DNA of 64,000 nucleotides, taken from Gaiellaceae bacterium (GTDB lineage: Bacteria; Actinomycetota; Thermoleophilia; Gaiellales; Gaiellaceae). The position numbers and the translations under genes were made by a program. This document shows positions 1-63,148 of this stretch, piece by piece. The notes beneath the pieces are model-generated. The model saw only the letters and a list, made by a program, of their open reading frames with translations, was not told the DNA's origin and ran no database searches. The number at the start of each line of letters is the position of its first letter. The stretch's first letter is position 1. The DNA lies in NCBI GenBank assembly GCA_050698015.1, contig JBOHAU010000019.1:12012-76011 (forward strand), written 5' to 3'.

Positions 1-353
1 ACCCCGCGGGTCCGGAGGTAAGGCAGAAGCGCCGAGATCTCCTCGGTCTCGCCGCTGTTGCTCACCGCGATCACCACCTCCTCGCCGCCGATGACGCCGA
101 GGCCGCCGTGGAGGGCGTCGGTCGGATGCACAAACAGCGCTCGCGTCCCGGTGCTCGTCAGCGTCGCTGCGATCTTGCGCGCGACGATCCCGGACGTCCC
201 GGCGCCGATCGTCGCCACGGCGCCGCTGCAGCGCGCGACGAGCTCGACTGCCTCCTCGAAGTTTTTGGGATCGAGGCGGTCGGCCGCCTCGACGATCGCC
301 TGAGCCTCCTGACGTAGAAGCTCCGCGGCGGACGACGAGAGCGCGGCACTCAT
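1..353 (-). CDS. kdsD: Arabinose-5-phosphate isomerase (KdsD/KpsF type), N-terminal SIS-domain part; 3' end lies beyond the window edge
   Basis: Not in ORF track (truncated). Manual minus-strand translation from ATG at 353: MSAALSSSAAELLRQEAQAIVEAADRLDPKNFEEAVELVARCSGAVATIGAGTSGIVARKIAATLTSTGTRALFVHPTDALHGGLGVIGGEEVVIAVSNSGETEE. SIS motifs GxGxSG, ATLxSTGT, HPxxALHGxLG, SNSGET. Start forms an ATGA overlap with the stop of the upstream HAD gene. Confidence 0.85.
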   Translation of the reverse strand, partial: MSAALSSSAAELLRQEAQAIVEAADRLDPKNFEEAVELVARCSGAVATIGAGTSGIVARKIAATLTSTGTRALFVHPTDALHGGLGVIGGEEVVIAVSNSGETEEISALLPYLRTRG

Positions 354-1087
354 CGAACCCGCTCGCTCACGCCGAGCTTCTGCGGGAGTTCACTGAGGTC
401 TGCGAGAACGATGTCGGCTTCCGGCGCACGGACCGCATCGTCCTCGTAGACGCCGTTGTACCGGACGGACGTCATTCCCATGGCGGCCGCCCCGGCAACG
501 TCCGTGCGGCGCCTGTCGCCGACATGGGCGGCGCGCTCAGGCGGAACACCTCCGAGCCCCGCCAGTGCGTGCTCGAAGATTGCGCGGTGCGGCTTGTAGT
601 GGCCGACCTCGTCTGAGAAGGACATGCCGTCGAAGTACGCGGGCAGCCCGTGGCGGTCGAGTAGTTCGCGTACGACCTGCGAGGGCGTGAGGCCGATGTC
701 ACAGACGATCCCGAGGCGCACGCCGGCGCTGCGAAGCTCCTCGAGGCACTCGCGGACGCCGTCGCTGGGATGGACCGCGGCACGCCGGCCGCCCTCACTG
801 AAGCCGTCCACGAGGGCCGCCGCCGCGTCAGGGCCGAGCTGGCTGTCGAGGCGCTCGAGCATGTGGTCGACGGCCTCCTCGACCTGGAACTGCCGCCCGG
901 CCGTCCACGAGTCGACGTACTCCTGATGCGCCGCGTCGTGTGCACGCTCGAGGTCGACCTCCGGCCCCAGCGTCTCAGCCCAGACATCGAGCCGCTTCTC
1001 CTTCAGCGAACCCGGTTCCTCCCACATCAGCGTGTTCCAGAAGTCGAAGGTGACCGCCTCAACCCTGGGCTCGGAGGATTCGGTCAG
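350..1087 (-). CDS. HAD-superfamily phosphatase (subfamily IA-like, with cap domain); candidate Kdo-8-phosphate phosphatase
   Basis: C-terminal 237 aa of track ORF 350..1681(-): HAD motif I FDFWNTL, later YKPHRAIF and VGDRRRTDVAGA. The upstream 200 aa of the track ORF is an Arg/Pro-rich shadow over the real gene 1084..2553. There is no in-frame ATG/GTG/TTG between the upstream stop and motif I. CTG at 1087 gives a CTGA overlap with that stop, so the start is uncertain. Confidence 0.7.
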   Translation of the reverse strand: MTESSEPRVEAVTFDFWNTLMWEEPGSLKEKRLDVWAETLGPEVDLERAHDAAHQEYVDSWTAGRQFQVEEAVDHMLERLDSQLGPDAAAALVDGFSEGGRRAAVHPSDGVRECLEELRSAGVRLGIVCDIGLTPSQVVRELLDRHGLPAYFDGMSFSDEVGHYKPHRAIFEHALAGLGGVPPERAAHVGDRRRTDVAGAAAMGMTSVRYNGVYEDDAVRAPEADIVLADLSELPQKLGVSERVR

Positions 1088-2553
1088 AGGCCTACCCGTG
1101 CCCGCAGCTTCATCACCCGCGGATGCCGGAGAACGCCGATCTGCTGCTCGGCGACCTGGACGACCCTCCGCAGCTGCGAGGCGGCCAGTGAGAGGGCCGT
1201 TGCGACCTTCTTCTCCGGCGGCAGAGCGAGCGAGGGCTTGATGTAGCCGCGGCGGGCCAGCCGGAGCGCCTCCTGCGGATGAACGACGCCCGCCGCCCGC
1301 GCCTCGTTGAACTCGGGCTCCCACACCGTCCTGAGCGGATTCTTGTCGTTCTTCCAGGGCTGGGTCGGAACGACCGTGTAGTGGAGGAGCTTCGTCTTGG
1401 CGGGCTCGTAGTGCTCGAGGTGGTTCCACTCCGGCGGGATGCTGTCGTTGATCTCGTCCGGGTCGACCACGCAGAGCTCGAACATCAGCTGCTGGTAGTC
1501 GTAGCGACCCTCGTCGAGCCCGCCGACGATCTCCCCGACGTCCCAGTCGAGGCGCTCGCAATCGAGCATCATCACGCTCAGCTGCCGCCCGGGATGGAAC
1601 CAGGACGAGTCCTTCCACTGCTCCGGCGGCTCGTCCTGGCGTGTGCACATCACCTTCGCGCCGTCGAACGGGACCTCCCACAGCTCGGCCATGTCACCGA
1701 ACACCTGCATGTCGGCGTCGACGTAGAGCCCCCGGCCCTTGTAGCCGGCGAGCTTCGGAATGTGGAAGCGGCTGAAGGAGAAGCCCGTGCGCCCGCGGTT
1801 CTTCGGATCCTTCGGCACCGGCGTCGGCACGTCGAGCATGGGGTAGAAGCGCACGGGGCGGCTGGCGTGCTTTCGGATCGAGTACTCGAGGACGCGTGAT
1901 GCCACGATCTGCGACTCGTCGAGTCCGCAGAAGACGCGCATGGGCTCGATGAGCGGGTCGTAGTCGATCCCCCACCTGGCGACGATGTCCTCGAGCTCCC
2001 GGAACTGCGCGTCGAAGCTCGGACGTTCATTCTCCAGCGGCTGCAGGTCAGTGAACTCCCTGCCGTACTGGGTCCCGCCGTCGACGCCGAGCGTGCGCAC
2101 CTTCTTCACGCCCATCTCGCCGAGGATGTTCATCGCCGCCTCGGAGCTGAAGAAGCGAACGCCGATCTGCGGCGAGTCGCCGATCGACACGGACGTCGCG
2201 GCGTTGTACCAGACGAGCTTCTCTTGCTCGTCGAGCTCTTGGAGGACCGGTATCTCCGTGAAGTAGTCCTCGAGCCGACGCTCCGCCGGCCGGAAGTTGA
2301 TGTGCGGGCGGCGCGGCATGACGAGAAAACGGCAGTTCGAGCGGAGCGCCTCCGCGCACTTCTCGATGACGTCGACATCGATGATGTGCGCGACCTCGAC
2401 GTTCTGCTCGGCCACGACGTCGTTGAGGCCCATGAGGTTGTAGTCCTCGAGCGGGAACTCGCCTCGGCGCGAGAACGTCGGGCCCTTGCCGAGCAGCAGC
2501 CACGGCTTCGGCTCGAAGCTCGATAGCGTGATCCACTCGCGGAGTTCGATCAT
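1084..2553 (-). CDS. Two-domain glycosyltransferase: N-terminal DUF115/GT42 sialyltransferase-like domain fused to a C-terminal GT8-like (retaining) domain
   Basis: 489-aa ORF. The N-terminal part has LLLGKGPTF (compare xxGNGPSL of Cst-type/DUF115 enzymes), then MGLND and FFSSEAAMNILGEMGVKKVRTLGVDGG (compare SG..A..lG.k.i.l.G.D). The C-terminal part has GT8-like features: GLYVDADMQV (DxD), LNHLEHY and LLHYT. Confidence 0.65.
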   Translation of the reverse strand: MIELREWITLSSFEPKPWLLLGKGPTFSRRGEFPLEDYNLMGLNDVVAEQNVEVAHIIDVDVIEKCAEALRSNCRFLVMPRRPHINFRPAERRLEDYFTEIPVLQELDEQEKLVWYNAATSVSIGDSPQIGVRFFSSEAAMNILGEMGVKKVRTLGVDGGTQYGREFTDLQPLENERPSFDAQFRELEDIVARWGIDYDPLIEPMRVFCGLDESQIVASRVLEYSIRKHASRPVRFYPMLDVPTPVPKDPKNRGRTGFSFSRFHIPKLAGYKGRGLYVDADMQVFGDMAELWEVPFDGAKVMCTRQDEPPEQWKDSSWFHPGRQLSVMMLDCERLDWDVGEIVGGLDEGRYDYQQLMFELCVVDPDEINDSIPPEWNHLEHYEPAKTKLLHYTVVPTQPWKNDKNPLRTVWEPEFNEARAAGVVHPQEALRLARRGYIKPSLALPPEKKVATALSLAASQLRRVVQVAEQQIGVLRHPRVMKLRARVGL

Positions 2554-2643
2554 GCGGGAACAGGCGACGTCAACACTGCTTTAGTTGGCCGGATCGCCGG
2601 GACGGCCGTAGTAGCCCGGGCACCCTACCGAAACTCTTGAGCC

Positions 2644-4122
2644 GTGATCATCGAAAGCTCTGACAGGGAACGAGACCTGCTCGGCTCGACCGAGGCAGGG
2701 GGTCTGGCGATCCGCGGCGGGATGCTTCGCCTCGGCGGGTACGCGGCGAGCGTCGCGGTCTCCCTCGTGTCCGTCCCGGTCCTCGCCCGCCATCTAGGGG
2801 TCGAGGATTTCGGCCGCTACGTCACCGTGCTCTCGCTGATCACCATCGCGTCGATGGTGTCGGACGTCGGCCTCACCCTGGTGGGACTCAGAGAGTACGC
2901 CGTGCGCGACCATGCTGGGCGCGTTCGCCTGGTTCGCAACCTGGTGGGCCTGCGGACGCTCGTCTCCTCGATCGGCGCTGTGGGGGCGACGGTGTTCGCG
3001 GCAGCAGCGGGCTACGGCGACGCGATGGTGCTCGGCACGGCGCTCGCCGGCCTCGGTCTCGTCCTCACGATGGTCCAGCAGACGTACACGATTCCGCTTC
3101 AGGGGGACCTGCGGCTCGGCCTGGTCACCGCGTTGGACCTGGCCCGCCACACGCTGGCGGTCGTCGCCATCCTCCTGCTGGCCCTAGTGGGCGCGGGCCT
3201 GGTGGCCTTTCTCTCGATACCCGTGCCCGTGGGTGTGGTCGCGCTTGCTGCGGCGGCGCTCGCGATCCACCGGCGGTTTGACGTGCGGCCGCAATTCGAT
3301 GCTCACGAGTGGCGCTACCTGGCGCGCGAGGCGCTTCCGGTCGCGATTGCCAGCGCGATCGGCTCGTTCTTCTACCGCAGCGCGATCATCGTGCTCTCGA
3401 TCATGGCCACGGCACAGGAAACGGGGTACTTCAGCGCCTCCTTCCGTATCGTCGAGGCGATCCAGATGGTGCCCGCGCTCCTGACCGCATCGGCGTTCCC
3501 GATCGTCGCTCGTGCCGCAACGAACGACCCGAAGCGCCTCGCCTACTCACTTCAGCGACTGTTCGACATGGCCGTCATCCTCGGCGCGTGGGCTGGGCTA
3601 TGTGTCGTTCTCGGCGCGGAGCCCGCGATCCGCTTTGTTGGAGGCCCGGAGTACGAGCCTGCGGTGGAGGTCCTCCGCGTCCAGGGCATCGCCCTCGCCT
3701 TGAGCTTTCTCGTAACCGTCTGGGCCACGGGCCTCTGGGCGGTCCGCGACCAGCGCGCGCTCGCCGGGGCCAACGCCGTGGGCGTCGCAAGCGCGGTGCT
3801 CCTGACCGCGGCCCTCATCCCCGGCTACGGCGCTCTCGGGGCCGCCATCGGCATGGCGATCGCTGAGACGCTCCTCGCCGCGATCTACGCGTTCGCTCTG
3901 ATGCGCGGGCGTCCGCACTTGCGTCCGGAATTGACATCGGTCCCGAAGACCCTTGCCGCCGTTGCGGTCGCGTCCGCGGCGTGGTTCGCCCCCGTCCCCG
4001 ACCTCGTGAAGGTCGCGCTCGCCACCGTACTCTTCTTCGCTGTCCTGGCAGCGCTCCGGGGCATGCCGACCGAGATCGCACACGCGCTCAGGGAGCGGCG
4101 CCTCGGACGGCGCACGGCCTAG
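2644..4122 (+). CDS. Polysaccharide/oligosaccharide flippase, MOP superfamily (Wzx-like)
   Basis: 492-aa ORF with GTG start and about 12-14 hydrophobic segments. The N-terminus (GGLAIRGGMLRLGGYAASVAVSLVSVPVLARHLGVEDFGRY) is typical of polysaccharide biosynthesis (Wzx/RfbX-type) proteins. Confidence 0.75.
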   Translation: MIIESSDRERDLLGSTEAGGLAIRGGMLRLGGYAASVAVSLVSVPVLARHLGVEDFGRYVTVLSLITIASMVSDVGLTLVGLREYAVRDHAGRVRLVRNLVGLRTLVSSIGAVGATVFAAAAGYGDAMVLGTALAGLGLVLTMVQQTYTIPLQGDLRLGLVTALDLARHTLAVVAILLLALVGAGLVAFLSIPVPVGVVALAAAALAIHRRFDVRPQFDAHEWRYLAREALPVAIASAIGSFFYRSAIIVLSIMATAQETGYFSASFRIVEAIQMVPALLTASAFPIVARAATNDPKRLAYSLQRLFDMAVILGAWAGLCVVLGAEPAIRFVGGPEYEPAVEVLRVQGIALALSFLVTVWATGLWAVRDQRALAGANAVGVASAVLLTAALIPGYGALGAAIGMAIAETLLAAIYAFALMRGRPHLRPELTSVPKTLAAVAVASAAWFAPVPDLVKVALATVLFFAVLAALRGMPTEIAHALRERRLGRRTA

Positions 4123-4129
4123 AACGCTC

Positions 4130-4969
4130 CTAGTCGGATGCGGCGATCCGCTCGGCCAACGCGTCGCGAACGGCGATCACGTCGCCAAGGAGGCGATCGA
4201 GCATGTCCGGCGTAATCATGTTCGGACCGTCACTCGGAGCCGAGTCGGGGTCCTCGTGAGCCTCGACGAAGAGCGCGTCGATCCCCACGGCAGCGGCTGC
4301 CCGCGCGAGATGTGGCACGAACTCGCGAAGGCCGCCCGAAGCCGAGCCAAGGCCTCCCGGCTGCTGCACGCTGTGGGTGACGTCGAAGACGACGGGATAA
4401 CCAAAGCCACGTAGTTGAGGAAGGCCCCTGAAGTCGACGACGAGGTCGTTGTACCCGAACGACGTCCCGCGCTCCGTCAAGAGGATGCGTTCGCAGCCGG
4501 CCGCTTCGAGCTTGCGGACGACGTTCGCCATCTCCGGTGGAGACAGGAACTGTCCCTTCTTGACGTTGACGGCCCTTCTCGTGCCAGCCGCAGCGGTGAG
4601 GAGGTCCGTTTGGCGGCTGAGGAAGGCCGGAATCTGGATGACGTCGGCGACGGCCGCGGTCGGCTCCGCCTGCCAGCTCTCGTGGATGTCCGTGATCACC
4701 GGCACCTCCAACGCCTCCTTCAAGCGCGCGAGCGTCGCGAGGCCCTCCTCCATCCCGGGCCCTCTCGCCGATTGTCCCGAAGAGCGATTTGCCTTGTCGA
4801 AGGAGGACTTGAAGACGAACCCCACCCTGTGACGATCCGCGATTGCCCGGATCGTCTCGGCGATCCGGAGCATGAAGTCCCGCCCTTCGACCACACAAGG
4901 GCCGGCGATCAGCAGCAGGGGGTGCCCGTCGCCGACGGAGACGGAGTCCGAGATTCGGACGTCGATCAT
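4130..4969 (-). CDS. kdsA: 3-deoxy-8-phosphooctulonate synthase (Kdo-8-P synthase)
   Basis: 279 aa with [65 protein letters not shown] and VFDVTHSVQ. These are KdsA signatures rather than AroG-type DAHP synthase. Start overlaps the kdsB stop (ATGA at 4966-4969). Confidence 0.9.
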
Positions 4970-5712
4970 CGAGCAGGCTCCCCAGCACGCACCTGGCGGC
5001 GCGCCCGTTCTAGATCGTCACTCGTGTTGACCTCGAGCACGGGGCGGTCGGTCTCGCAGACGCGGATGCGGATCCCGTGTTCGAGCGCTCGGAGCTGTTC
5101 CAGGCGCTCCTGCTGCTCGAGCGGCGTCGGCGGAAGCTCGGGAAATCGCAGAACGCTCTCGCGCGTGAAGGCGTAGAGGCCCAGGTGGTGGAGCGGCTTC
5201 ACCACCGACCCTGTGTCCATCGCGTCGTGCGGGATCGAACTCCTGGAGAAGTAGAGCGCATAGCCGTTCACGTCCCGCACCACCTTGACGATGTTCGGGT
5301 CCGTCCACCACGCGGGATCCGCGAGCGGACAAGCGAGGGTGGTCATCGGCGGGAGCTCACCGGCGAGGTACGGCGAGACCAGCGTGGTGAGCATCTCGGC
5401 GGTCACGAACGGCTGGTCGCCCTGCACGTTCACGACGATGTCCGCGTCGCCGTGCCGCGCCGCCACCTCGGCAACCCTGTCGGTGCCGCTGGCGTGATCG
5501 TCGCGGGTTAGCTGGACCGTCCCGCCGAAGTCGCGCACGGTCGCGGCAATGTCCTCGCTGTCGGTCGCGACGACGACCTCGTCAAAGGCCCGACACGCCG
5601 TGGCCGCCTCGTAGACCCACTGGACGAGCGGCCGGCCGCCGAGGTCGGCGAGTGGCTTCCCGGGCAAACGGGAGGCTCCGTAACGGACGGGAACGACGGC
5701 GAGAATCTTCAC
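4966..5712 (-). CDS. kdsB: 3-deoxy-manno-octulosonate cytidylyltransferase (CMP-Kdo synthetase)
   Basis: Track ORF 4966..5832 trimmed to the GTG at 5712, giving [35 protein letters not shown]. Also [19 protein letters not shown] and YFSRSSIP, typical of KdsB. Confidence 0.85.
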
Positions 5713-5748
5713 GGTGTTAGCGTGCCCGTCCTTGCGCGAGACCGCTCG

Positions 5749-6486
5749 ATGAATGACTCGACTGTGACGTTCACCAAGTACGAAACGCGCGGAGCGTACC
5801 ACTGGGCCGAGCTCGCCCACCGCTTCCCGCACAGGTACTCGTCACGTCTCCACGCACAGTACGACTGGTTCGTCGACGAAGCGCGTAAGCGTCGGACGTC
5901 ATTGATCGTCGATGTTGGTTGCGGAGACGCCGCGCTGACGTACTTGCTGGAGCAGGCGACCGGTGCCCGCGTCGTCGGGATCGAGCCCGAGCCTCTGGGA
6001 GTGGAGCTGGCACGCGAAGCGCTCGCCCGGGTGGATTCCTCGGTCGAGGTCCTTCAGGGGAGGGGCGAAGAGCTGCCCTTCGCCGACGGCGAAGCGTCTC
6101 TCGTTGTGATGTCGGAGGTCATTGAACACGCGCGCAAAGCGGATCCCCTCATCGACGAGGCAGCGAGGGTCGTCTCGGCGACCGGGGCGGTCCTTCTCTC
6201 GACGCCGCAATGGCAGAGCGATGACCTTCGGGAGCTCCATTTCAAGGAGTACACCGCCGACGAGCTGCGCGCTCTCTGCGCTGGGGCGTTCGAAGATGTG
6301 GAGGTCCTCGTTGCCGAGCCGCCAGGGCTGTACGACCGCTACATGTCGAACCCCTTTTGGCGCGTGGGGGTGGACGTCGCAAGCCTCCTAGGACGAAATC
6401 CCTTCACCAAGCGGCTTCGCGCTTCGTCCGGGCACGCCGGCTGGCGGGAGCTCTTTGCGATCGCCTCCCGCCCAAAGGTCGCCTAG
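5749..6486 (+). CDS. Class I SAM-dependent methyltransferase
   Basis: Motif I IVDVGCGDAALTYLL and post-I VVGIEPE, then LVVMSEVIEH. ATG at 5749 preferred; GTG at 5722 is the alternative. Divergent from kdsB. Confidence 0.75.
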   Translation: MNDSTVTFTKYETRGAYHWAELAHRFPHRYSSRLHAQYDWFVDEARKRRTSLIVDVGCGDAALTYLLEQATGARVVGIEPEPLGVELAREALARVDSSVEVLQGRGEELPFADGEASLVVMSEVIEHARKADPLIDEAARVVSATGAVLLSTPQWQSDDLRELHFKEYTADELRALCAGAFEDVEVLVAEPPGLYDRYMSNPFWRVGVDVASLLGRNPFTKRLRASSGHAGWRELFAIASRPKVA

Positions 6487-6495
6487 GGTCCCCGC

Positions 6496-7320
6496 ATGTT
6501 CGGGCGCGCCCAGCTGAAAACACGCGAGGAGGTCGAGCGTCGTGTCGCGGAGCTCGGCTGGTGGTACCACCATTTCGAGCTTCCGAGCGGGGTTTGGACC
6601 GGCGATGGGCAGCCGCCGGCGTACTGCCCGGCGGACCGGTGGGCGCTGATCGCGCCACACCTCCCGGACGACCTCAGCGGGAAGTCGGTGGTTGACGTGG
6701 GCGGGAACTCGGGGTACTTCAGCGTGCAGATGAAGCTGCGCGGCGCCGCGAGATGCGTGATGGTCGAACCGGTTCGCGACTTCGTCGATCAGGCGAAATT
6801 TGTCGCTTCGCAATTCGGCGTGCGCATCGAGGTCGTAAACGACGACGTCCACGCATATTGCCTCACTACGAGCGAACGGTTCGACTACGTCCTCTTCCTG
6901 GGCCTCTTCTACCACCTGAAGTACCCCGTCCTCGTACTCGATCGGCTGGCTGAGATGACGAAGACGCTGATGTTCTTTAACTCGCATATCGAGGGACCGC
7001 CCACGAGCGAGAGTGACGGAGCCGGCAAGCCGGCCGACCTCGACAGGGAGGATCTTGCTGCCGGGACGTTTCCCCGGTTGTCGTTCATTGAGGGTGCATA
7101 TCGGGGCGACCTCTCGAATTGGTGGATCCCGAACTACCAGGCGCTCGAGCCGTTGGCGCGCAGTGCCGGTCTGAGGGTGGTCGCCCGCCCGCATCCCGAG
7201 ATGCTCGTCCTCGAGCCCATGCGCCACCTCGGAACCGCGCGATATCGCCGCCTCGTCTTCCCCCGCTATGGCAAGTCGGGCGGGGCAATTTTTCCAGGAT
7301 CACCCCGAAATCGGCTGTGA
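6496..7320 (+). CDS. SAM-dependent methyltransferase, DUF1698/CmoB-like family
   Basis: 274 aa with ELGWWYHHFELPSGV, then VVDVGGNSGYFSVQM and FDYVLFLGLFYHLKYP, a pattern typical of the WYH-type (Methyltransf_9-like) family. Confidence 0.7.
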   Translation: MFGRAQLKTREEVERRVAELGWWYHHFELPSGVWTGDGQPPAYCPADRWALIAPHLPDDLSGKSVVDVGGNSGYFSVQMKLRGAARCVMVEPVRDFVDQAKFVASQFGVRIEVVNDDVHAYCLTTSERFDYVLFLGLFYHLKYPVLVLDRLAEMTKTLMFFNSHIEGPPTSESDGAGKPADLDREDLAAGTFPRLSFIEGAYRGDLSNWWIPNYQALEPLARSAGLRVVARPHPEMLVLEPMRHLGTARYRRLVFPRYGKSGGAIFPGSPRNRL

Positions 7321-7330
7321 CCGTAACGAG

Positions 7331-8542
7331 CTACCCCCGCGCTGTCACTCCTACCCGCGCCGGGCTCCGCGCTGACTGCTCGCGGCTTAGCGCGACATCG
7401 CGGCGGAGCCCAAGGACGCTCAGGAAGAACGAGCTGAAGATCACCTGGACGCCGAGCGCGACGAGCGTCACCCCGAGCAGTGCTTCGTGCTCCCGCGCCA
7501 GTGCCCCGAACCCGCCGCTTGCCCACTCGACGAAGATCGCCATCAGCAGGATCGCCCCGGCTACGAACAGCCCGAGGCCGAGCAGAAGCCCGTGCTCCAA
7601 GCGGATCCGCGACCAGGCGAGCTCCAAGCGGGGATCGCTGTCGCCGAGGTACAGCACTGCGTAGGTTCGCGCGAACAGCCCGAGCTGAACGATCTGGGCG
7701 CCGACGAGCGTCGCCGCCATGCCCACGATCATCGGGTGCTCGTACCACGTCCAGCCGAACAGGTCGATCGGCCCCATCGAGAGTGGCAGCACGATCAGCA
7801 GGCCGAGCGCGAGCAGGATCGCACCGGGAATGAGGAACAAGAAGGTCGCGCTGTGGACGAGCAGAAACCGGAGGCTCCGCCAACCGTCGCGCACGGTGTG
7901 CAGCTTCGAATCCCCGGCGCGGGCGTGGTAGTCGATCGGCACCTCGGACAGGACGACGCCGCGCTTCGCGCTTTTGAGAATCATCTCGAGCGCGAACTCC
8001 ATGCCCGTCGCCTGGAGCTCGAGTTTCGGCAGCACGGAGCGACGGAACATCCGCATCCCGCAATAGGCGTCGGAGACGCGCAGGCCGAAGAACAGGTTGA
8101 TCAGCCGGGTCAGGATCGGATTGCCCACGTGGCGATGGAGCCACGGCATCGCGCCTGTGTAGATCTCACCCCTGAGCCGCGACCCGAGCACCATCTCAGC
8201 GCCCTTGTCAATCTCGGCCATGAAGTCCTCGAGCTTGCTGAAGTCGTACGTCTCGTCGGCGTCGCCCATGACGATTACGTCGCCGCGCGCCGACCCCAGG
8301 CCTGTCAGGTACGCACGCCCGTAGCCGCGCTGCTCCTCGTGAATGACCGTGGCGCCCTCGCGCTCTGCGATCTCGACGGAGCGGTCGGTGGAGCCGTTGT
8401 CGACGACGATCACCTCGCCGGTCTTTCCGAGCCGTTCGATCCCCCTCCACGCCGAGCGGACGACGTTTCCGACGCCCTCCTCCTCGTTGAGGCACGGGAT
8501 GACGACGGAGATCTCGACAGCGGCGTCGGAGGCGGCGACCAA
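7331..8542 (-). CDS. GT2 polyprenyl-phosphate glycosyltransferase (GtrB/DPM1-like) with C-terminal transmembrane segments
   Basis: 403 aa with ISVVIPCLNEEEGV, VIVVDNGSTDRS, GDADETYD and SDAYCGMRMFRR. The C-terminal roughly 150 aa is hydrophobic (about 4 TM). Confidence 0.8.
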   Translation of the reverse strand: MVAASDAAVEISVVIPCLNEEEGVGNVVRSAWRGIERLGKTGEVIVVDNGSTDRSVEIAEREGATVIHEEQRGYGRAYLTGLGSARGDVIVMGDADETYDFSKLEDFMAEIDKGAEMVLGSRLRGEIYTGAMPWLHRHVGNPILTRLINLFFGLRVSDAYCGMRMFRRSVLPKLELQATGMEFALEMILKSAKRGVVLSEVPIDYHARAGDSKLHTVRDGWRSLRFLLVHSATFLFLIPGAILLALGLLIVLPLSMGPIDLFGWTWYEHPMIVGMAATLVGAQIVQLGLFARTYAVLYLGDSDPRLELAWSRIRLEHGLLLGLGLFVAGAILLMAIFVEWASGGFGALAREHEALLGVTLVALGVQVIFSSFFLSVLGLRRDVALSREQSARSPARVGVTARG

Positions 8543-8599
8543 AGCGCGGGCGACTGTAACAAAGCCTCGTAATTGCCCCGTAAACTCGCCTCGCGACCA

Positions 8600-9610
8600 A
8601 TGGGGATAGGTGTCGTCATCGTCGCCTACGACGCCGGGCCCCGGCTCGTTCGCTGCGTCGAGTCTCTCGCCGATGACGCAGCCGACGGCGTGGAGATCGT
8701 CGTCGTCAACAACGGGGCTCGCAGCCCGGAGATCGAGTGGGCGGATCAGGCCTCGTTCGTGAAGCTGCTCGAGCCGGGAGGCAATGTCGGGTTCGCAACC
8801 GGCTGCAATCTCGGCGTCTCGGCGACGGACGCAGACACACTGGTCTTCCTCAACCCCGACACGGTCGTGGCTCCCGCGGCGATCAGCGCGCTCGCTTCGC
8901 GGGTCGAAGACCCGTCAGTTGGCGTCGCGATGGCGCGGCTGCGGCTGCTGGACGACCCCGATCTTCTCAACTCGAGCGGCGCCGCGCTGCACATCTCGGG
9001 CCTAGGCTGGTCGAGTGGTCACGGCGAGCCGGCGGCGTCCGTCGACACGCTGCGGGAGATCGCCTACGCGAACGGCTCCGCGCTTGCGATCCGGCGAGAG
9101 GTGTTCGAGGCGCTGGGCCGCTTCACCGACGAGTTCTTCATCTACCTCGAGGACGCCGAGCTCAGCTGGCGGGCCCGGCTGGCCGGCCTTCGCGTCGTCC
9201 TCGATCCGGCGGCAGACGTGTACCACGACTACGAGTACGCCCGAAACCCGACGAAGCTCTACTACATGGAACGAAACCGTCTCCTGCTCGTGCTGACCGC
9301 CTACCAGCTCCGCACGATCCTCGTGCTGCTGCCCTTGCTGCTCGCGACCGAGCTCGGTATGGCTGCGCTCGCCGCGCGCCAGGGCTGGCTCCGCGACAAG
9401 ATTGCGGCGTGGCGCTGGTCGCTGAGACAGCGCGGTTGGCTCCGCGCGCATCGCCGTGAGACGCAGGCGCTCCGGCGCGTCCCGGATCGCGAGCTCGCTC
9501 GCTACCTAACGCCGGTCGTCGACCCGAAGATGATCGCGCTGCCCGCCGCGCTGCGGCTCGCGAACCCGGTCATGCGGGCCTACTGGGCGGTGGCCCGGCG
9601 GGTTCTGTAG
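8600..9610 (+). CDS. GT2 family glycosyltransferase (rhamnosyl/WbbL-like class)
   Basis: Track ORF 8573 starts at TTG; ATG at 8600 gives MGIGVVIVAYDAG. Also IVVVNNG, GNVGFATGCN, LNPDTV and FIYLEDAELSWR. There is a C-terminal hydrophobic stretch. Confidence 0.75.
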   Translation: MGIGVVIVAYDAGPRLVRCVESLADDAADGVEIVVVNNGARSPEIEWADQASFVKLLEPGGNVGFATGCNLGVSATDADTLVFLNPDTVVAPAAISALASRVEDPSVGVAMARLRLLDDPDLLNSSGAALHISGLGWSSGHGEPAASVDTLREIAYANGSALAIRREVFEALGRFTDEFFIYLEDAELSWRARLAGLRVVLDPAADVYHDYEYARNPTKLYYMERNRLLLVLTAYQLRTILVLLPLLLATELGMAALAARQGWLRDKIAAWRWSLRQRGWLRAHRRETQALRRVPDRELARYLTPVVDPKMIALPAALRLANPVMRAYWAVARRVL

Positions 9611-10610
9611 GGGCGGTCGCCGCCAGTTCGCGCGAGCGGCGCGAGAGCACCGGCACGACGCTCCTCCCCCTGGCCAGCGCGCGGCGGATCTCGCGCGAGG
9701 AGACGACGCGCCGGTCCTGGACGGCACGCCGCTCGCGCAGGATCTCGGGGAGACCGCGGAGTGCGTCCCGCTTGGCGCGGAACGCCACCCCGGCGCGGCG
9801 CGTGATCGCGAATGCAGCGAGGGTGGCCAGATTCACGAGCAGGTGCTGGGGGAGGTAGAGCCAGAACAGTGCCGATGGCATGTCCTTGACGTACGTCCAG
9901 ACGATGTTGCGGTGGGTGTGGTAGAGCATGAAGTCGCTGTCCCGGCATGCGGCGGACGAGCCGACGTGGCGCGCGACCGCGCCCGGCACGTACATCGAAC
10001 GGTGGCCGACGAGGCGGAGCCTGAAGCCGAGATCGACGTCTTCGTAGTAACAGAAGAACCGCTCGTCGAAGCCGCCGACGGCGAGGAAAGCGTCGCGCCG
10101 ATAGAGGGCAGCGGCTGCGCTCGCCGAAAACACCTCTCGGGGCGCTGCCGCCGAAGAAGACGACTCGCCCCGACCGCCCTGCCAGGCGACGCCGCTGACG
10201 TGCATCACGTCGCCGGCGGCATCGAGACGCCCGGGATCCGAGTCCATCACGATCCGGCTTGAGAACGACGCGGATCCGGGAGCGGCCTCTGCGGCACGCA
10301 GGAGCTCCTCGAGCCACCGCGCCTCCGGGAACGCGTCCGGGTTGAGGAGCGCGAGCCATTCGGAGTCGCCCGCCTCGCGCGCCGCGAGGTTGTTCGCCGC
10401 CGCGAAGCCCACGTTCGCGTCGAGCCGGATTACCTCGACGCTTGGGAACTCGGCCTCAACGCCGTCAGCAGACCCGTCGGTGCTCCCGTTGTCGACGACG
10501 AGGATCCGGTCTGGCGCTCGCGTCTGCTCCGCCAGCGCGGCGAGCGAGCGGCGGAGGAAGCGGCCCGAGTTCGCGTTCACGATCGCCACGGCAACGCGAG
10601 GTCGCTCCAC
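9570..10610 (-). CDS. GT2 family glycosyltransferase
   Basis: 346 aa, GTG start, with VAVAIVNANSGRFL, ILVVDNGSTDGS, NVGFAAANN, LNPDAFP and CYYEDVDLGFR. The 3' end overlaps the convergent gene 8600..9610 by 41 nt. Confidence 0.8.
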   Translation of the reverse strand: MERPRVAVAIVNANSGRFLRRSLAALAEQTRAPDRILVVDNGSTDGSADGVEAEFPSVEVIRLDANVGFAAANNLAAREAGDSEWLALLNPDAFPEARWLEELLRAAEAAPGSASFSSRIVMDSDPGRLDAAGDVMHVSGVAWQGGRGESSSSAAAPREVFSASAAAALYRRDAFLAVGGFDERFFCYYEDVDLGFRLRLVGHRSMYVPGAVARHVGSSAACRDSDFMLYHTHRNIVWTYVKDMPSALFWLYLPQHLLVNLATLAAFAITRRAGVAFRAKRDALRGLPEILRERRAVQDRRVVSSREIRRALARGRSVVPVLSRRSRELAATAPTEPAGPPPSRPA

Positions 10611-10654: not shown

Positions 10655-12838
10655 ATGGCCGCCGTGCTCCGGGACGCCGCTCACAGCGCGCACGGCCGAG
10701 CGCGGAGCGGATTCCGGGTCGCCGGCCTGAGCGTCCCAGCGGCGCTCACCGCTGCCGGAGTCCTGCTCCTGACGGTCGTCGTGCGTTACGTGCTGGCGCT
10801 CGACCAGACGGCGCCGTGGCTGATGGGCGACGAGTTGCGCTACGCGGAGATGGCGAAGAGTTTTCTCGAGGAGGGCAGGCTCCTCTTCCGCGAGCAGTTC
10901 ACGTCGTTCGCGAGCGCCTATCCGGCGTTGATTTCGCCCGGCTGGGCTGCGTCGGACATCGAGACCGCGTACGAGTTCGCGAAAGCCGTGAACGTCGTGC
11001 TCATGACCTGCTCGGCGGTTGTCGTCTTCTTCTGGACGCGCAGGCTGGGGACGACGGCGTTCGCCCTCGCGGCGGCCGGTCTCGTCCTCCTGATGCCGAC
11101 GTTCACGTACACGGGCATGCTCATGACCGAGAACGCCGCGGTCCCAGCGTTCCTGCTCGCGGCGTTCCTGATGGCCGTCGCGCTAGAACGCGGAAGCGTC
11201 GCCCTGCAGCTGGCCGCGATCGGGGCGATCGCGCTGGCGGCGCTGCTACGTGTGCAGGTTGCGACGCTCGCGCTCGTCTTCCCGGCGGCGATCGTCCTCG
11301 ACGCCTGGCTCGCGCGCTGCGCCGGCACCCGGCCCGTTCGGGAGTCGCTCCGGCGGTTCGTCCCGGCCGTCGTCGCCCTCGCGTCGGGGGCGCTGCTGTA
11401 CCTCGTCTACATCGTGCTGTCCGGCGGATCCCTCACTAGTGGCCTAGGTGCGTACGACGCCGTCGCGGGAGCCGACTACGACGTTTTGGACGTCGTACGC
11501 TGGGCGGTCTGGCACGTCGGGGAACTAGTCCTGTCCGTCGGCGTTCTGCCGGCGCTCGCGTTGGTCGCGCTGGTCGCGTCCGCGGCGCGGCAAGGAGGGC
11601 TCGCGTCGCCGGCCGAGCGTGCATTCGTCGCTGTCGGAGCCATCGCGACGGTCGCCTTCGTCCTCCAGGCTGCAGCGTTCGCGTCGCGCTTCTCGGGGCG
11701 CATCGAGGAGCGGTACATGGTGTACACCTCGCCACTCCTCCTCATGGCTCTGGTCGTCTGGGTAGCGCGGGAACGAGAGCGAGCGCGGCTCGCGGCCGTG
11801 GTCGGCTGCGCCGCCTGCGCGCTCTTTGCGTTGACGATCCCGTTCGAGCGCCTCTTCAACGTCGGCCTCTTCGGAGACACGTTCGGACTGATCCCGTTCA
11901 TGCGGCTCTCGACGTTCCTCGACGCCGGAGTGGAGGACCTGCGCATCGTCGTGGCCGCGGGCCTCGCGGCCGCCGTTGCGCTCTTTCTCGCCCTCCCCTG
12001 GAAGGTCGCCCGCGTCGCACTCCCGAGCGTCGTCGCCGGCTTTCTTCTCCTTTCCGGCTACACGGTCCACGGCACGATCCGCGACCAGTCGCAGGCAACG
12101 AGGGCGGCGCAGGGCGCCGCAGATCCGAGCTGGGTCGACCACGCCGTCGGCGACGACGCAAGGGTCGGGTTCGTCTACGGCCCGAACGTGAGCTCGAACC
12201 CGCACCTCCTCTGGCAGGCAGAGTTTTGGAACCGGAGCATTGACAACGTCTACGTACACGGCACCGATCCCGACCCCTCCTACTCGAACGACGAGATCCG
12301 GATCGACGCGCATGGTCGGCTAGTGCCGAAGGAGGCGGGAGACGCGCAGCTGGAGGAGCCGTACCTGGTCGCCGACCCGGCGCTCGGGATCGTCGGCGAG
12401 GTCGTTGCCCAGCCTGGGCCTATCGCGCTGATCCAGCTCGATCCTCCCGCTCGCGTCGAGCAGACGCTCGACGGTGTGTACGGCGATGGATGGTCGGGGC
12501 CCAACGCTGCGCTGAACCGGTACGCCCCGCTGAGTGGTGGCGCTCGGCGGATCAAGGTGGACGTCTCGCGGGCCGGCTGGGACGGCCCAGATCTCCCTGG
12601 CCGCGTCGAGATCCGCGTCGGCCCCCTGCGGATGATGGGAAGCGATCCGTCCCTTGCCCGCGTAACCGCCGCGCGGCAATGGACTGTCCACTCGAAGACC
12701 GCCCGGAGTTTCGTGCTGCCGTTGCCTCCCGCCCCATTCCGCGTCGAGGTGAGCGTCACACCGACCTTCTCCCCCGCCCAGTTCGGCCACGGCGATGCCC
12801 GGCAGCTCGGCGCCCAGCTGGGGTTCTCGCCCGCATGA
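10655..12838 (+). CDS. GT-C fold glycosyltransferase (ArnT/PMT, GT39-like) with C-terminal extracytoplasmic domain
   Basis: Track ORF 10442 trimmed to the ATG at 10655, because the upstream 71 aa is an Arg-rich shadow over 9570..10610. First-loop motif LMGDELRYAEMAKSFLEEGRLLF, at least 10 TM segments, then a roughly 270-aa soluble C-terminal domain. Confidence 0.7.
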   Translation: MAAVLRDAAHSAHGRARSGFRVAGLSVPAALTAAGVLLLTVVVRYVLALDQTAPWLMGDELRYAEMAKSFLEEGRLLFREQFTSFASAYPALISPGWAASDIETAYEFAKAVNVVLMTCSAVVVFFWTRRLGTTAFALAAAGLVLLMPTFTYTGMLMTENAAVPAFLLAAFLMAVALERGSVALQLAAIGAIALAALLRVQVATLALVFPAAIVLDAWLARCAGTRPVRESLRRFVPAVVALASGALLYLVYIVLSGGSLTSGLGAYDAVAGADYDVLDVVRWAVWHVGELVLSVGVLPALALVALVASAARQGGLASPAERAFVAVGAIATVAFVLQAAAFASRFSGRIEERYMVYTSPLLLMALVVWVARERERARLAAVVGCAACALFALTIPFERLFNVGLFGDTFGLIPFMRLSTFLDAGVEDLRIVVAAGLAAAVALFLALPWKVARVALPSVVAGFLLLSGYTVHGTIRDQSQATRAAQGAADPSWVDHAVGDDARVGFVYGPNVSSNPHLLWQAEFWNRSIDNVYVHGTDPDPSYSNDEIRIDAHGRLVPKEAGDAQLEEPYLVADPALGIVGEVVAQPGPIALIQLDPPARVEQTLDGVYGDGWSGPNAALNRYAPLSGGARRIKVDVSRAGWDGPDLPGRVEIRVGPLRMMGSDPSLARVTAARQWTVHSKTARSFVLPLPPAPFRVEVSVTPTFSPAQFGHGDARQLGAQLGFSPA

Positions 12839-13746
12839 GCACGGACGAGGTCTCCGAGCTCTGGGGGCGAAAGGCCCGCGAGAAGGTCGAGGACGAGGAC
12901 TGGAGCCGCTTCTACTGGCAATCGAATCCGCTCACGCTCCGTCACATCAACCGCCTACTGACCGGCGACGAGGCGGAAGGCTGGCTGACGTTCACCAAGC
13001 GGCGCTTCGTTCCTGAAACCCTCGAGCGAGGTCTGAGCCTCGGATGTGGCCATGGCCCGGTCGAGCGGGACGCAATGGCTCTAGGCATCTGCAGGACCTT
13101 CGATGCCTTCGACATCTCGGAGGAAGCGGTCGAGGTCGCGCGCAGCGAAGCCGAACGGGCGGGCCTCGGCGACCGCATCGAGTATCGGCGCGCCGACCTC
13201 AACACGGTCGAGCTCGGCCGTGATTGCTACGACATCGCGTTCGCGATCCAGGTGCTGCACCACATCGACGCACTAGAGCATCTCCTCGATCAGGTCGCGG
13301 CCTCACTGCGTCCGGAGGGCCTGTTCGTCGTCAACGAGTACGTCGGCCCGCCGCGGTTTCAGCTCCTCGGCAAGACGCGCGACGTCATGAACCGTGTCCT
13401 CGACGTGGTGCCCGAGGAGTACAAGACCAATCCCCGTGACGGGAGCGTTCGCGGGCCGATGGAGCGCGCTGCTCCCGAAGACATCGTGGCAGTCGATCCC
13501 TCGGAGGCGATCCGCTCCGACGAGATCCCCGAGCTGCTCCGCTCGCGCTTCGACGTCCTCTACGAAGCCGACTTCGGCGGCACTGTCCTCCAGTTCCTGC
13601 TCGCGGACATCGTCGCTAACTTCGACGAGGCGGACGCGAGAGACGTCGCGCTCCTCGACCTCATCTGCCTGATCGAGGAACTGCTGATCGCCGAGCGCGT
13701 CCTGCCGAGCGACTTCGCGTACTACGTGCTCAGGCCGCGGCGCTGA
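12835..13746 (+). CDS. Class I SAM-dependent methyltransferase
   Basis: ATG at 12835 forms an ATGA overlap with the stop of the GT-C gene. Motifs: GLSLGCGHG, AFDISEEAV, AFAIQVLHHI and LRPEGLFVVNEY. Confidence 0.75.
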   Translation: MSTDEVSELWGRKAREKVEDEDWSRFYWQSNPLTLRHINRLLTGDEAEGWLTFTKRRFVPETLERGLSLGCGHGPVERDAMALGICRTFDAFDISEEAVEVARSEAERAGLGDRIEYRRADLNTVELGRDCYDIAFAIQVLHHIDALEHLLDQVAASLRPEGLFVVNEYVGPPRFQLLGKTRDVMNRVLDVVPEEYKTNPRDGSVRGPMERAAPEDIVAVDPSEAIRSDEIPELLRSRFDVLYEADFGGTVLQFLLADIVANFDEADARDVALLDLICLIEELLIAERVLPSDFAYYVLRPRR

Positions 13747-17874: not shown

Positions 17875-17878
17875 AGCG

Positions 17879-63038: not shown

Positions 63039-63148
63039 GGTTCCTCCTCTCAAGCAGTCGACATTTGCTGCGTCAGTAGCCCGCACCACCTCCTTTCGCG
63101 AGGGGGCGCCGAGCGCCGGAGCTCAGAACCGCAGAGAGATCGAACAGT

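Follow-up and report, generated by a model that had tools for sequence, protein, structure and literature searches.

In this Gaiellaceae-like soil actinobacterium, CMP-Kdo is probably made for a methylated wall glycan rather than for lipid A-core, with a sialyltransferase-like enzyme as the Kdo transferase, a reading that rests on sequence comparison and structure modeling. Kdo is a sugar chiefly known from Gram-negative LPS. The window, which is the whole 64-kb stretch of DNA that was analyzed, contains genes of the Kdo pathway, a 489-aa two-domain protein encoded beside them, and an ABC-2 glycan exporter. The cassette was compared with six other actinobacterial loci (L004, L083, L084, L085/86, L087, and L088-90).

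Kdo pathway genes and host lineage

The genes kdsA (Kdo-8-phosphate synthase, 279 aa; 4130–4969) and kdsB (CMP-Kdo synthetase, 248 aa; 4966–5712) lie on the reverse strand, and both products score above curated equivalog cut-offs. KdsA reaches 390 bits with NF003543 (cut-off 242) and 376 bits with TIGR01362 (cut-off 314), and KdsB reaches 289 bits with NF003952 (cut-off 193) and 199 bits with TIGR00466 (cut-off 155). An ATGA read at 4969–4966 joins the kdsB stop to the kdsA start in an overlap. Also on the reverse strand, kdsD (arabinose-5-phosphate isomerase; 1–353, start ATG at 353–351) runs off the start of the window, which holds just its first 117 codons, encoding the N-terminal SIS domain. 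This fragment matches NCBIfam KdsD (E 8e-29), GutQ, and KpsF as well as Pfam SIS, and full-length SIS+CBS homologues of 313–330 aa occupy the syntenic position in L083–L088. Models for DAHP synthases score KdsA well under their cut-offs (e.g., 122 bits vs 335), and KdsB as PseF receives only 50 bits vs a cut-off of 206. An NJ tree places KdsA within a monophyletic actinobacterial KdsA clade, and the Cys in its GPCVVE motif suggests the metal-dependent type. Judged by their sequences, kdsA, kdsB, and kdsD are true Kdo-pathway genes, and kinship with AroG, NeuB, or PseF is excluded. The initial annotation, which had placed these three genes, pointed out the ATGA overlap, and separated KdsA from AroG, is borne out on all of these points.

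Its description of a complete CMP-Kdo pathway holds for kdsD, kdsA, and kdsB, but profile annotation finds no canonical KdsC (YrbI-type HAD-IIIA Kdo8P phosphatase) among the window genes, and we only infer the fourth step. A HAD-IA phosphatase (350–~1063, reverse strand; Pfam Hydrolase, HAD_2, and Hydrolase_like; NCBIfam TIGR02253 and REG-2-like) likely stands in for KdsC. A second ATGA, at 353–350, joins its stop to the kdsD start, and homologues with 54–78% identity immediately precede kdsD in L084, L087, and L088; in L085/L086, the corresponding position is occupied by an Inositol_P-family phosphatase. Motif I of the HAD-IA protein is atypical (DFWNT, a DxW form). The start of its gene is uncertain, as the conserved start position holds no ATG, GTG, or TTG and reads GTT at 1063–1061 in this window. 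In E. coli, KdsC is dispensable. A precedent for replacement comes from plants, in which the Kdo8P phosphatase is a HAD protein other than KdsC (bioRxiv 10.64898/2026.05.02.722439).

By similarity and gene order, the contig is Gaiellaceae-like (Thermoleophilia, Actinomycetota), which agrees with its earlier description as actinobacterial. The best named relatives of KdsA (77% identity) and HemE (81% identity) are from 'Gaiellaceae bacterium' MAGs, and MAGs labeled Actinobacteria are also among the named sources of top relatives. Gene order from g14 to kdsD is the same in the Gaiellaceae MAG GCA_036555085.1, and a 180-kb soil contig has the same long-range order of Kdo cassette, Wzm/Wzt, hemE-hemH, polX, and cofCDE. 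Annotation of the ~55 window genes also upholds the reported lack of lpx- or waaA-like genes in the 64 kb and extends it to the lpt and bam families; ~150 kb of related loci, judged by their Pfam annotation, likewise lack all four.

A two-domain glycosyltransferase in a conserved cassette

The 489-aa protein (1084–2553, reverse strand) is the sole glycosyltransferase common to every one of the six cassette loci. Its homologues (61–82% identity) adjoin kdsB-kdsA in all six, and in L085 and L088 the gene overlaps the kdsA stop. These loci also contain kdsD and genes encoding a phosphatase, a MOP flippase, and a methyltransferase. For thirteen pairs made up of one homologue of the 489-aa protein and one of KdsA, the longest contig has an identical stated length. 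In the window, the MOP-superfamily (Wzx-type) flippase is encoded at 2644–4122 on the forward strand (Pfam Polysacc_synt, 73.5 bits, and Polysacc_synt_3), with homologues of 50–55% identity in L083–L086. The SAM methyltransferase kept with the cassette (5722–6486, forward strand; Pfam Methyltransf_11/25) has homologues of 52–64% identity in L004, L085, and L086. Next to it lies a TIGR04290/Methyltransf_9-type methyltransferase gene (6496–7320, forward strand; TIGR04290 E 4e-54), and an enzyme of this type adjoins the 489-aa homologue in Pirellulales.

The N-terminal domain of the protein (aa 1–205; 1939–2553) matches no Pfam family and no PDB sequence. Its AF2 model (pLDDT 85, pTM 0.84) has a sialyltransferase-like/DUF115-like fold, and CMP-sialic acid transferases account for four of the five best Foldseek matches. 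Cst-I (2p2v; E 1.6e-4, prob 1.0) ranks first, followed by CstII, MptE (8sd5), and ST8SiaIII, with TM-scores of only ~0.5. By hhalign, the domain aligns with the DUF115 proteins of Kdo loci (Prob 75%, E 2.5e-5), and its comparison with the CstII sequence is not significant (0.3%). Four loci from monoderm Firmicutes have these DUF115 (PF01973) proteins beside kds genes, with kdsB-kdsA-kdsD flanked by them in Bacillus sp. ISL-41 and kdsA adjoined by them in Ruminococcus, Oscillospiraceae, and Acutalibacteraceae; neither DUF115 nor the N-domain was found in ~74 other KdsA loci, which are mostly diderm. The C-terminal part (1084–1938) comprises a GT8 retaining hexosyltransferase domain (aa ~206–440) and basic helices (aa ~441–489). 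The domain scores 28.5 bits with Pfam Glyco_transf_8 (cut-off 24.3), and its best Foldseek match is WbbM (6u4b; 7.6e-10), with LgtC, GlyE, and glycogenin also matched. Invariant residues of the 489-aa protein are D279 and D281 (the DxD motif) and H391. From the modeled fold and the gene neighborhood, the protein probably represents a type of bacterial Kdo transferase that has not been described before.

Other glycan genes and the proposed route

Further glycan genes extend the locus toward the exporter. A GT2 protein with C-terminal membrane segments (7331–8542, reverse strand) resembles the polyprenyl-phosphate sugar synthases AglJ, ArnC, and DPM and has homologues with GT2_TM_C in L085–L088. 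Two convergent genes encode GT2 glycosyltransferases matching Pfam Glycos_transf_2 (8573–9610, forward strand; 9570–10610, reverse strand), and the Pirellulales locus encodes a homologue of the latter (59% identity). A polytopic membrane protein of 727 aa (10655–12838, forward strand) has no Pfam, NCBIfam, or PDB match and has syntenic counterparts of 726–728 aa in L087 and L088; its GDELRYAE motif offers a lead, and no firmer assignment, toward an ArnT-like GT-C enzyme. Then come a methyltransferase (12835–13746, forward strand) and, on the reverse strand, a GT2-GT4 fusion (13730–15679), a methyltransferase with a coiled coil (15657–16784), a GT4 (16768–17874), and another methyltransferase (17879–19075); the stretch 12835–19075 is syntenic in L088 and L094. 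The exporter consists of Wzm (19078–19896, forward strand; Pfam ABC2_membrane) and Wzt (19901–21139, forward strand; ABC_tran, with a C-terminal carbohydrate-binding Wzt_C at 62 bits). The best NCBIfam models for the pair, TagH and galactan Wzm/Wzt, all score below cut-off. In L094, the closest relative, Wzm/Wzt has the same position relative to hemE. The initial annotation had the pathway feeding an ABC-exported polymer. A conserved Wzm/Wzt pair does lie 14 kb off, but the constant partners of kdsA and kdsB are the Wzx-type flippase and the two-domain glycosyltransferase, which had gone unremarked there; from gene content, ABC export of the Kdo polymer is plausible.

These data allow us to propose a route. 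By homology, KdsD supplies arabinose-5-phosphate, metal-type KdsA condenses it with PEP to Kdo-8-phosphate, and KdsB converts free Kdo to CMP-beta-Kdo, with the kdsD-coupled HAD-IA phosphatase presumably performing the intervening dephosphorylation instead of KdsC. The 489-aa protein would use CMP-Kdo, its sialyltransferase-like N-domain transferring Kdo and giving alpha-Kdo if it inverts as GT42, GT29, and Maf enzymes do, and its GT8 domain would attach an alpha-hexose from a UDP-sugar. Working together, the two domains could produce a polymer akin to a teichulosonic acid in which hexose and Kdo alternate, or they could furnish a lipid-linked glycan with a cap or adaptor that contains Kdo. 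Conserved methyltransferases may O-methylate the glycan, which would be exported by Wzm/Wzt, with Wzt_C reading the chain-end modification, or by the conserved Wzx-type flippase, and would finally reside in the wall of an LPS-free cell.

Because the fold of the N-domain also covers the pyrophosphokinase MptE, its third-best structural match, the domain could be a kinase. A non-LPS Kdo glycan would still be made, with the N-domain as a kinase/pyrophosphokinase-like module that, with methyltransferases, makes a WbdD-like phospho-methyl cap, and with another enzyme of the locus, for instance a GT2 or GT4 protein or one of the unassigned membrane proteins, transferring Kdo. We regard this as unlikely, though it draws on several observations. 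In larger relatives, the N-domain lies directly behind a methyltransferase domain; the stop of a stand-alone N-domain gene shares 4 bp with a Methyltransf_9-type gene, a translational coupling; and the Pirellulales homologue adjoins Wzm/Wzt and two methyltransferases with no kds genes nearby. The coiled-coil methyltransferase of the window fits as well, and the frequent fusion or coupling of the N-domain to methyltransferases recalls WbdD, a kinase-methyltransferase terminator. However, we know of no GT2, GT4, or GT8 enzyme that uses CMP-Kdo. The preponderance of CMP-sialic acid transferases among the fold matches, the constancy of the 489-aa protein in the kds cassettes, and its translational coupling to kdsA also argue for Kdo transfer by the N-domain, as do the recurrence of DUF115 proteins near Firmicutes kds genes and the acceptance of CMP-Kdo as a substrate by Maf (DUF115) enzymes (PMC11339370).

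Two further explanations dispense with the wall glycan. It is improbable that the organism is a diderm, or bears an LPS-like glycolipid, and that its Kdo goes into a conventional lipid A-core whose genes lie elsewhere in the genome. Consistent with a diderm, a Gram-negative stain is recorded for Gaiella occulta, the one species described in the order (PMC6741124), and the sequence coverage is that of 64 kb of the genome and ~150 kb of related loci. However, Actinomycetota are classically monoderm; the kds genes sit inside, and are translationally coupled to, a polysaccharide cassette; waaA, lpx, and lpt families are missing from every actinobacterial locus examined; actinobacterial KdsA forms a separate clade; and none of the papers searched links Gaiellales or Thermoleophilia to Kdo. 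Even less probable is a recently transferred or decaying island with no working product here. The HAD gene without a canonical start would suit such an island, as would a GC content of 0.66–0.70 in the first 22 kb vs 0.70–0.72 in the remaining window and the Planctomycetota and cyanobacteria that hold the nearest non-actinobacterial relatives of KdsA and the glycosyltransferase. Every other reading frame, however, is intact with strong third-position GC, and KdsC is dispensable in E. coli. Moreover, a great many soil contigs carry the cassette at 61–89% identity and its gene order is shared between genomes; it therefore appears to have been maintained vertically for a long time under selection.

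Kdo outside LPS

The initial annotation considered a dedicated arabinose-5-P to Kdo route behind an ABC-exported polymer less usual. The mere presence of the pathway in a monoderm is rare, but it is not new because Kdo genes were reported earlier from the monoderms Pontimonas salivibrio (PMC6106888) and Bacillus coahuilensis, in an island (PMC4744853). Known proteins offer several parallels to the wall glycan proposed here. RCKT1, a plant GT29 enzyme, is a CMP-Kdo transferase (PMC11288761), and WbbB adds a beta-Kdo cap to an ABC-exported O-antigen (PMC12887879, PMC9587256). The Kdn-teichulosonic acids of actinobacteria consist of alpha-hexose/alpha-ulosonate repeats (PMC6801904), which the alternating hexose-Kdo chain would resemble.

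CMP-Kdo genes and their host

An initial annotation of this DNA described a complete CMP-Kdo pathway, and most of its genes are substantiated. KdsA (4130-4969, minus strand) is a true Kdo8P synthase, scoring 390 bits against NF003543 (cut-off 242) and 376 bits against TIGR01362 (cut-off 314). These curated cut-offs rule out a relative of AroG or NeuB, and DAHP-synthase models score far under theirs. The cysteine in its GPCVVE motif presumably marks the metal-dependent type, as in Aquifex KdsA. KdsB (4966-5712, minus strand) is a true CMP-Kdo synthetase, with 289 bits against NF003952 (cut-off 193) and 199 bits against TIGR00466 (cut-off 155); the PseF model gives 50 bits versus a cut-off of 206, which sets KdsB apart from NeuA, PseF, and LegF. 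The ATGA overlap described for kdsB and kdsA is present at 4969-4966, and a second ATGA joins the stop of the adjacent HAD gene to the start of kdsD. Only the first 117 residues of KdsD, comprising the SIS domain, are encoded here (1-353, minus strand), as the gene continues past the window edge. The best matches of this fragment, which is too short for whole-protein cut-offs, are KdsD, GutQ, and KpsF, and relatives of the window carry full-length SIS+CBS genes at the syntenic position.

A YrbI-type (HAD-IIIA) KdsC, the usual Kdo8P phosphatase, has no match among the window proteins, so the description "complete" depends on the HAD gene at 350 to ~1063 (minus strand). The encoded protein is of class HAD-IA (TIGR02253 and REG-2-like models), and its homologues directly precede kdsD in three related loci (L084, L087, and L088). 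In another locus (L085/L086), an Inositol_P-family phosphatase occupies the same position, which argues for a pathway-phosphatase role. Given this replacement and the coupling to kdsD, we infer that the HAD protein substitutes for KdsC. Its motif I reads DFWNT rather than DxD (1033-1047, minus strand) and is invariant in all four homologues compared, those of the window, L084, L087, and L088. The tryptophan lies where phosphatases usually carry the second aspartate, making this motif unusual for a phosphatase.

The proposed actinobacterial origin is borne out by named relatives and by synteny. Among the GTDB representatives, which do not include this species, the closest KdsA is 66% identical. 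In a large protein collection, over 100 KdsA proteins share 74-86% identity with that of the window, and almost all of them come from soil metagenomes; the sole taxon-named match is "Gaiellaceae bacterium" at 77%. HemE is 81% identical to a protein of "Gaiellaceae bacterium" and 75% identical to one of "Actinobacteria bacterium". The gene order from a GT2-GT4 fusion to kdsD is identical in a Gaiellaceae MAG (GCA_036555085.1). A 180-kb JGI contig bears the Kdo cassette and, ~5 kb away, the same run as the window: methyltransferase, Wzm, Wzt, GT4s, hemE, hemH, polX, cofC, cofD, F420 reductase, and cofE. From these relationships we assign the window to a member of the Thermoleophilia of Gaiellales type. 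A neighbor-joining tree, computed without bootstrap, unites the KdsA proteins of actinobacteria in a single clade, and those of monoderm Firmicutes are separate from it and grouped with Fusobacteria. A mobile island was considered and rejected: neither an integrase nor a tRNA hints at one among the annotated genes, and different genomes keep the locus in synteny.

A two-domain glycosyltransferase beside kdsA

The gene at 1084-2553 (minus strand) encodes a 489-aa protein that adjoins kdsB-kdsA in every readable actinobacterial kds locus (L004, L083, L084, L085/86, L087, and L088-90); in L085 and L088 its gene extends over the stop of kdsA. Genes for kdsD, a phosphatase, a MOP flippase, and a methyltransferase lie nearby in these loci, and the 489-aa protein is the sole glycosyltransferase common to all of them. 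Coinciding lengths of the longest contig suggest that 13 homologues of this protein and 13 of KdsA reside on shared contigs. The family comprises 1945 matches; of the best 120, 117 span the full length with 55-89% identity and bear the annotation "hypothetical" or "GT8".

The AlphaFold model of the protein (pLDDT 84) shows two domains. Residues ~206-440 constitute a retaining GT8 glycosyltransferase. The match to PF01501 is weak (28.5 bits; cut-off 24.3). The domain has the GT-A fold, with Foldseek matches to WbbM, LgtC, GlyE, and glycogenin (E 1e-10 to 1e-6), and its DxD motif (D279 and D281) and C-terminal histidine (H391) are invariant across 31 homologues. The N-terminal domain (residues 1-205; 1939-2553), modeled alone with pLDDT 85 and pTM 0.84, is predicted to adopt a sialyltransferase (GT-A variant) fold. 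Its Foldseek matches include Cst-I (2p2v; E 1.6e-4, TMq 0.55) and the further GT42 sialyltransferase structures 2p56, 2x61, and 1ro7 (Cst-I/CstII), all with probability 1.0. The domain also resembles an MptE-like kinase (8sd5; E 9.6e-4) and human ST8SiaIII in fold.

At the sequence level, the N-terminal domain has no Pfam match at E ≤ 1, PF01973 included, and a PDB sequence search returned nothing useful. Alignment with the verified CstII sequence (hhalign probability 0.3%) does not place it in GT42. A shallow profile was likewise not significant against DUF115. However, a profile built from 139 diverse representatives of the domain, the only one to reveal the signal, matches DUF115 proteins with a probability of 75% (E 2.5e-5, 131 columns), pairing GKGPSF with GNGPSL and LGIDG with LGVD. 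Clustered at 50% identity, the domain family has ~650 representatives in a collection of 1.84 billion proteins. Some members are stand-alone proteins of ~200 aa, some are joined to GT8, and others form part of larger chains (up to 1401 aa) that also carry methyltransferase, GT2, and GT4 domains. The gene neighborhoods of the large multidomain members gave no informative picture or lay on short contigs.

One study lists WaaA, GT107, GT99, and GT140 as bacterial Kdo transferases (PMC12887879), and the last three share a modified GT-B fold. With Glycos_transf_N and Capsule_synth as the Pfam models used, no homologue of GT30 WaaA, GT107 KpsS/KpsC, GT99 WbbB, or GT140 KrkA was found among the scanned window proteins. 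WbbB and KpsC are also absent from the 50 best PDB fold matches of the 489-aa protein.

A Pirellulales locus (L081/L082, GCA_040901675.1) encodes a homologue of the 489-aa protein at 61% identity with no kds genes nearby. It is flanked by two methyltransferases of the window's two types, Wzm, Wzt with Wzt_C, GT2s, a PMT_2 protein, and a WecA-like enzyme, and one GT2 of the locus is 59% identical to a window GT2. These data suggest that the two-domain glycosyltransferase module has moved between Planctomycetota and Actinomycetota. In Bacillus sp. ISL-41, three MptE-like (PF01973) proteins flank kdsB-kdsA-kdsD (L066, 8413-9195, 12348-13136, and 13160-14053). PF01973 proteins also lie 1-4 kb from kdsA in loci of Ruminococcus, Oscillospiraceae, and Acutalibacteraceae (L061, 6872-7696; L060, 3441-4400 and 8288-9196; L043, 6312-7238); Oscillospiraceae has two copies, one within that range and the other ~5.6 kb from kdsA. 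The other ~74 KdsA loci, mostly from diderm phyla, contain neither PF01973 proteins nor the actinobacterial N-terminal domain. The sialyltransferase-like fold recurs beside kds genes in monoderms, a clear pattern with modest statistics, as ~3 independent monoderm lineages underlie it. The DUF115 proteins flanking kds genes are candidate Kdo transferases of Gram-positives.

The surrounding locus and a proposed Kdo glycan

Gene calling by third-position GC together with family scans delimits one large glycan locus at 1-30.7 kb. Besides the Kdo cassette, it holds a MOP (Wzx-type) flippase (2644-4122, plus strand), ~7 GT2 genes, three stand-alone GT4 genes, a DegT aminotransferase, a 4,6-dehydratase-like enzyme, and a flippase-like LPG_synthase_TM protein. 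Wzm (19078-19896) and Wzt (19901-21139), both on the plus strand, were identified by the Pfam families ABC2_membrane, ABC_tran, and Wzt_C (62 bits; cut-off 30.4). With this binding module, the window has the components of ABC-dependent export with chain-end recognition, the Kdo glycan being a putative cargo. The 30 kb of glycan genes include seven or more genes for SAM methyltransferases (5722-27933), among them two that follow kdsB (from 5722 and 6496) and others at 12835, 15657, 17879, and 27196. Their abundance points to a polysaccharide that would be heavily O-methylated.

Several other genes of the window merit description. The protein encoded at 15657-16784 (minus strand) consists of a methyltransferase domain followed by an SMC-like coiled coil of ~100 residues and is reminiscent of the chain-length-regulating terminators (WbdD) of ABC-transporter-dependent glycan synthesis. 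A methyltransferase ORF (27196-27933) and a GT2 ORF (27867-28574, minus strand) share 67 bp, read in two different frames, and both lie within a longer ORF of 631 aa, which may be a frameshift or a genuine overlap. A 727-aa polytopic membrane protein (10655-12838, plus strand), encoded near an AglJ/ArnC-like polyprenyl-phosphate glycosyltransferase (7331-8542, minus strand), contains the motif GDELRYAEM, which we take to resemble the first loop of ArnT-type GT-C enzymes. The two proteins may decorate a glycan outside the membrane. Neither the 727-aa protein nor an 872-aa membrane protein (21768-24386, plus strand) has a match in Pfam, NCBIfam, or the PDB. The same is true of a 481-aa protein (37370-38815, plus strand), which, like the 872-aa protein, is conserved; it follows cofE syntenically in a related locus (L094). 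The 1153-aa product of 44082-47543 (minus strand) begins much like a signal peptide, contains a GH130/GH43-like domain, and is possibly a secreted glycan-degrading enzyme. A six-bladed Kelch-repeat protein (62082-63089, minus strand) is encoded beside the end of nrdJ, and the remainder of the window comprises hemE, hemH, polX, cofC, cofD, F420 reductase, cofE, a GGDEF protein, a MacB-type permease, LtrA, and that nrdJ end.

These observations allow a pathway to be proposed. Homology assigns the production of CMP-Kdo to KdsD, KdsA, and KdsB, with the HAD enzyme probably supplying free Kdo. The N-terminal domain of the 489-aa protein would then transfer Kdo, and its GT8 domain would add an α-hexose. 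One candidate product is a chain in which hexose and Kdo alternate, in keeping with WbbM, a polymerase of two domains, and with the α-hexose/α-ulosonate repeats that Kdn-teichulosonic acids of actinobacteria contain (PMC6801904). Another is a Kdo-containing chain end, which fits the β-Kdo cap added by WbbB before Wzm/Wzt export (PMC12887879), the Wzt_C module of the window, and the close tie to methyltransferases. Export might proceed through either the ABC transporter or the MOP flippase. We put at about an even chance the overall reading that a methylated wall glycopolymer with Kdo, either a Kdo-type teichulosonic acid or a Kdo-capped chain, is made by Gaiellales and by related Actinomycetota of soil. 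They would do so via an unrecognized sialyltransferase-like (DUF115/GT42-like) Kdo-transferase family, here fused to GT8, and monoderm Firmicutes would have recruited the same fold for Kdo on their own.

Other readings were weighed against this one. The fold match to MptE and the occurrence of the N-terminal domain in methyltransferase fusions would suit a kinase-like module making a methyl-phosphate type cap, which we judge unlikely in view of a fold also matched by four sialyltransferase structures. It is highly improbable that the organism has LPS after all. Gaiella occulta, the single described species of the order, stains Gram-negative (PMC6741124), and our view extends to the window and related loci. 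Within that view, the absence of LPS genes noted in the initial annotation was upheld: families for lpxA-D/K, waaA (PF04413), lptD, and bamA are absent from the scanned window genes, and lpx, waaA, lpt, and bam families are likewise missing from the Pfam families listed for related loci in Actinobacteria. A cassette in decay is barely plausible. At the HAD gene, the window has GTT (1063-1061) where three homologues begin with ATG (M-V/T-E-A-V-T-F-D-F), with no ATG, GTG, or TTG at that position. The only two in-frame alternatives are CTG at 1087-1085, which would overlap the stop of the upstream glycosyltransferase gene, and ATG at 1027 (minus strand), which would remove the catalytic motif I.

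Kdo is regarded as a hallmark of the Gram-negative envelope, and the Kdo pathway is seen as a means of targeting Gram-negatives with drugs and of labeling them. Both Gram-negatives and plants are well known to make Kdo glycans other than LPS. Few actinobacteria are as common in soil as Gaiellales, whose envelope is almost unstudied, and the conserved Kdo cassette is a concrete clue to the surface of their cells. In the literature searched, nothing was found that links Gaiellales or Thermoleophilia with Kdo. Four further things appear to be undescribed in that literature: the conserved Gaiellales cassette, the sialyltransferase-like/GT8 enzyme that it encodes, the repeated occurrence of this fold next to monoderm kds genes, and the absence of any Pfam model for the N-terminal domain. 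If the domain is a Kdo transferase, it would found a new glycosyltransferase family. Should the fold also serve Kdo transfer in monoderm Firmicutes, the monoderm class would differ from the GT-B-derived GT30, GT99, GT107, and GT140 of Gram-negatives. Bacterial, Maf-type, and plant (RG-II) Kdo transfer would be joined by one fold, and the scattered Kdo genes of Gram-positive genomes would be explained. Kdo genes in metagenomes should not count as evidence of LPS.

Relation to known Kdo and ulosonic acid systems

The presence of Kdo genes in Gram-positives has been noted before. Bacillus coahuilensis m2-6 and Pontimonas salivibrio carry kdsA, kdsB, and kdsD, thought to serve a surface glycan (PMC4744853, PMC6106888). 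The B. coahuilensis island has a canonical kdsC and a kpsC of GT107 type, neither of which was found in the window. Kdo outside the lipid A core, as proposed here, is exemplified by WbbB (GT99), which terminates the O-antigen chains of Raoultella terrigena and Klebsiella O12 with β-Kdo, a multi-domain enzyme that places Kdo on a lipid-linked glycan whose chain end is read by the Wzm/Wzt binding module (PMC12887879, PMC9587256). The window resembles that system in having Wzm and a Wzt with Wzt_C. However, WbbB is a retaining enzyme with a modified GT-B fold, whereas the N-terminal domain is sialyltransferase-like and belongs to an actinobacterial host that probably lacks LPS.

The Maf/DUF115 (PF01973) glycosyltransferases, which attach nonulosonic acids to flagellin, share the fold class of the N-terminal domain and may be its remote homologues in sequence. 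They take CMP-activated ulosonic acid donors, experimentally including CMP-Kdo, with which the Maf enzymes of C. botulinum and G. kaustophilus place Kdo on flagellin (PMC11339370). Unlike Maf, the N-terminal domain has no Pfam match, is fused to GT8, and is encoded in a polysaccharide locus; given this locus and fusion, a glycan acceptor rather than flagellin is expected for the 489-aa protein. Cst-I and CstII (GT42) of Campylobacter jejuni are its best fold matches (E 1.6e-4 to 2e-3, probability 1.0), with GxGP at the first strand and GxD ahead of a flexible loop in common. They differ in lacking significant sequence similarity and in their donor, CMP-Neu5Ac instead of the predicted CMP-Kdo. 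In plants, RCKT1/MGP2 (GT29) is a sialyltransferase-like enzyme that uses CMP-β-Kdo for a wall polysaccharide, rhamnogalacturonan-II, in an organism without LPS (PMC11288761), and the plant Kdo8P phosphatase is a non-KdsC HAD enzyme (bioRxiv 10.64898/2026.05.02.722439). RCKT1/MGP2 belongs to a different family and works in the Golgi of eukaryotes, and its resemblance to the N-terminal domain may be no more than a likeness in kind.

For the 489-aa protein as a whole, the best full-length structural match is WbbM (GT111 + GT8; 6u4b), the galactan-I polymerase of Klebsiella O2a. Both have two glycosyltransferase domains with GT8 at the C-terminus, and the WbbM pathway is ABC-transporter-dependent, but the N-terminal domain of WbbM belongs to another family and handles another sugar. 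A search of the literature found no report of a Kdo-type teichulosonic acid. The teichulosonic acids of Actinomycetota, such as the Kdn polymer of Promicromonospora citrea, are anionic wall polymers of α-hexose and α-ulosonic acid repeats (PMC6801904). These polymers are defined chemically, as wall-linked chains with an ulosonic acid in the repeat, and the known examples contain Kdn or nonulosonic acids; the Kdo polymer of the window is a predicted one. The α/α stereochemistry of the Kdn-teichulosonic acids fits the pairing of a retaining GT8 domain with an inverting sialyltransferase-like domain.
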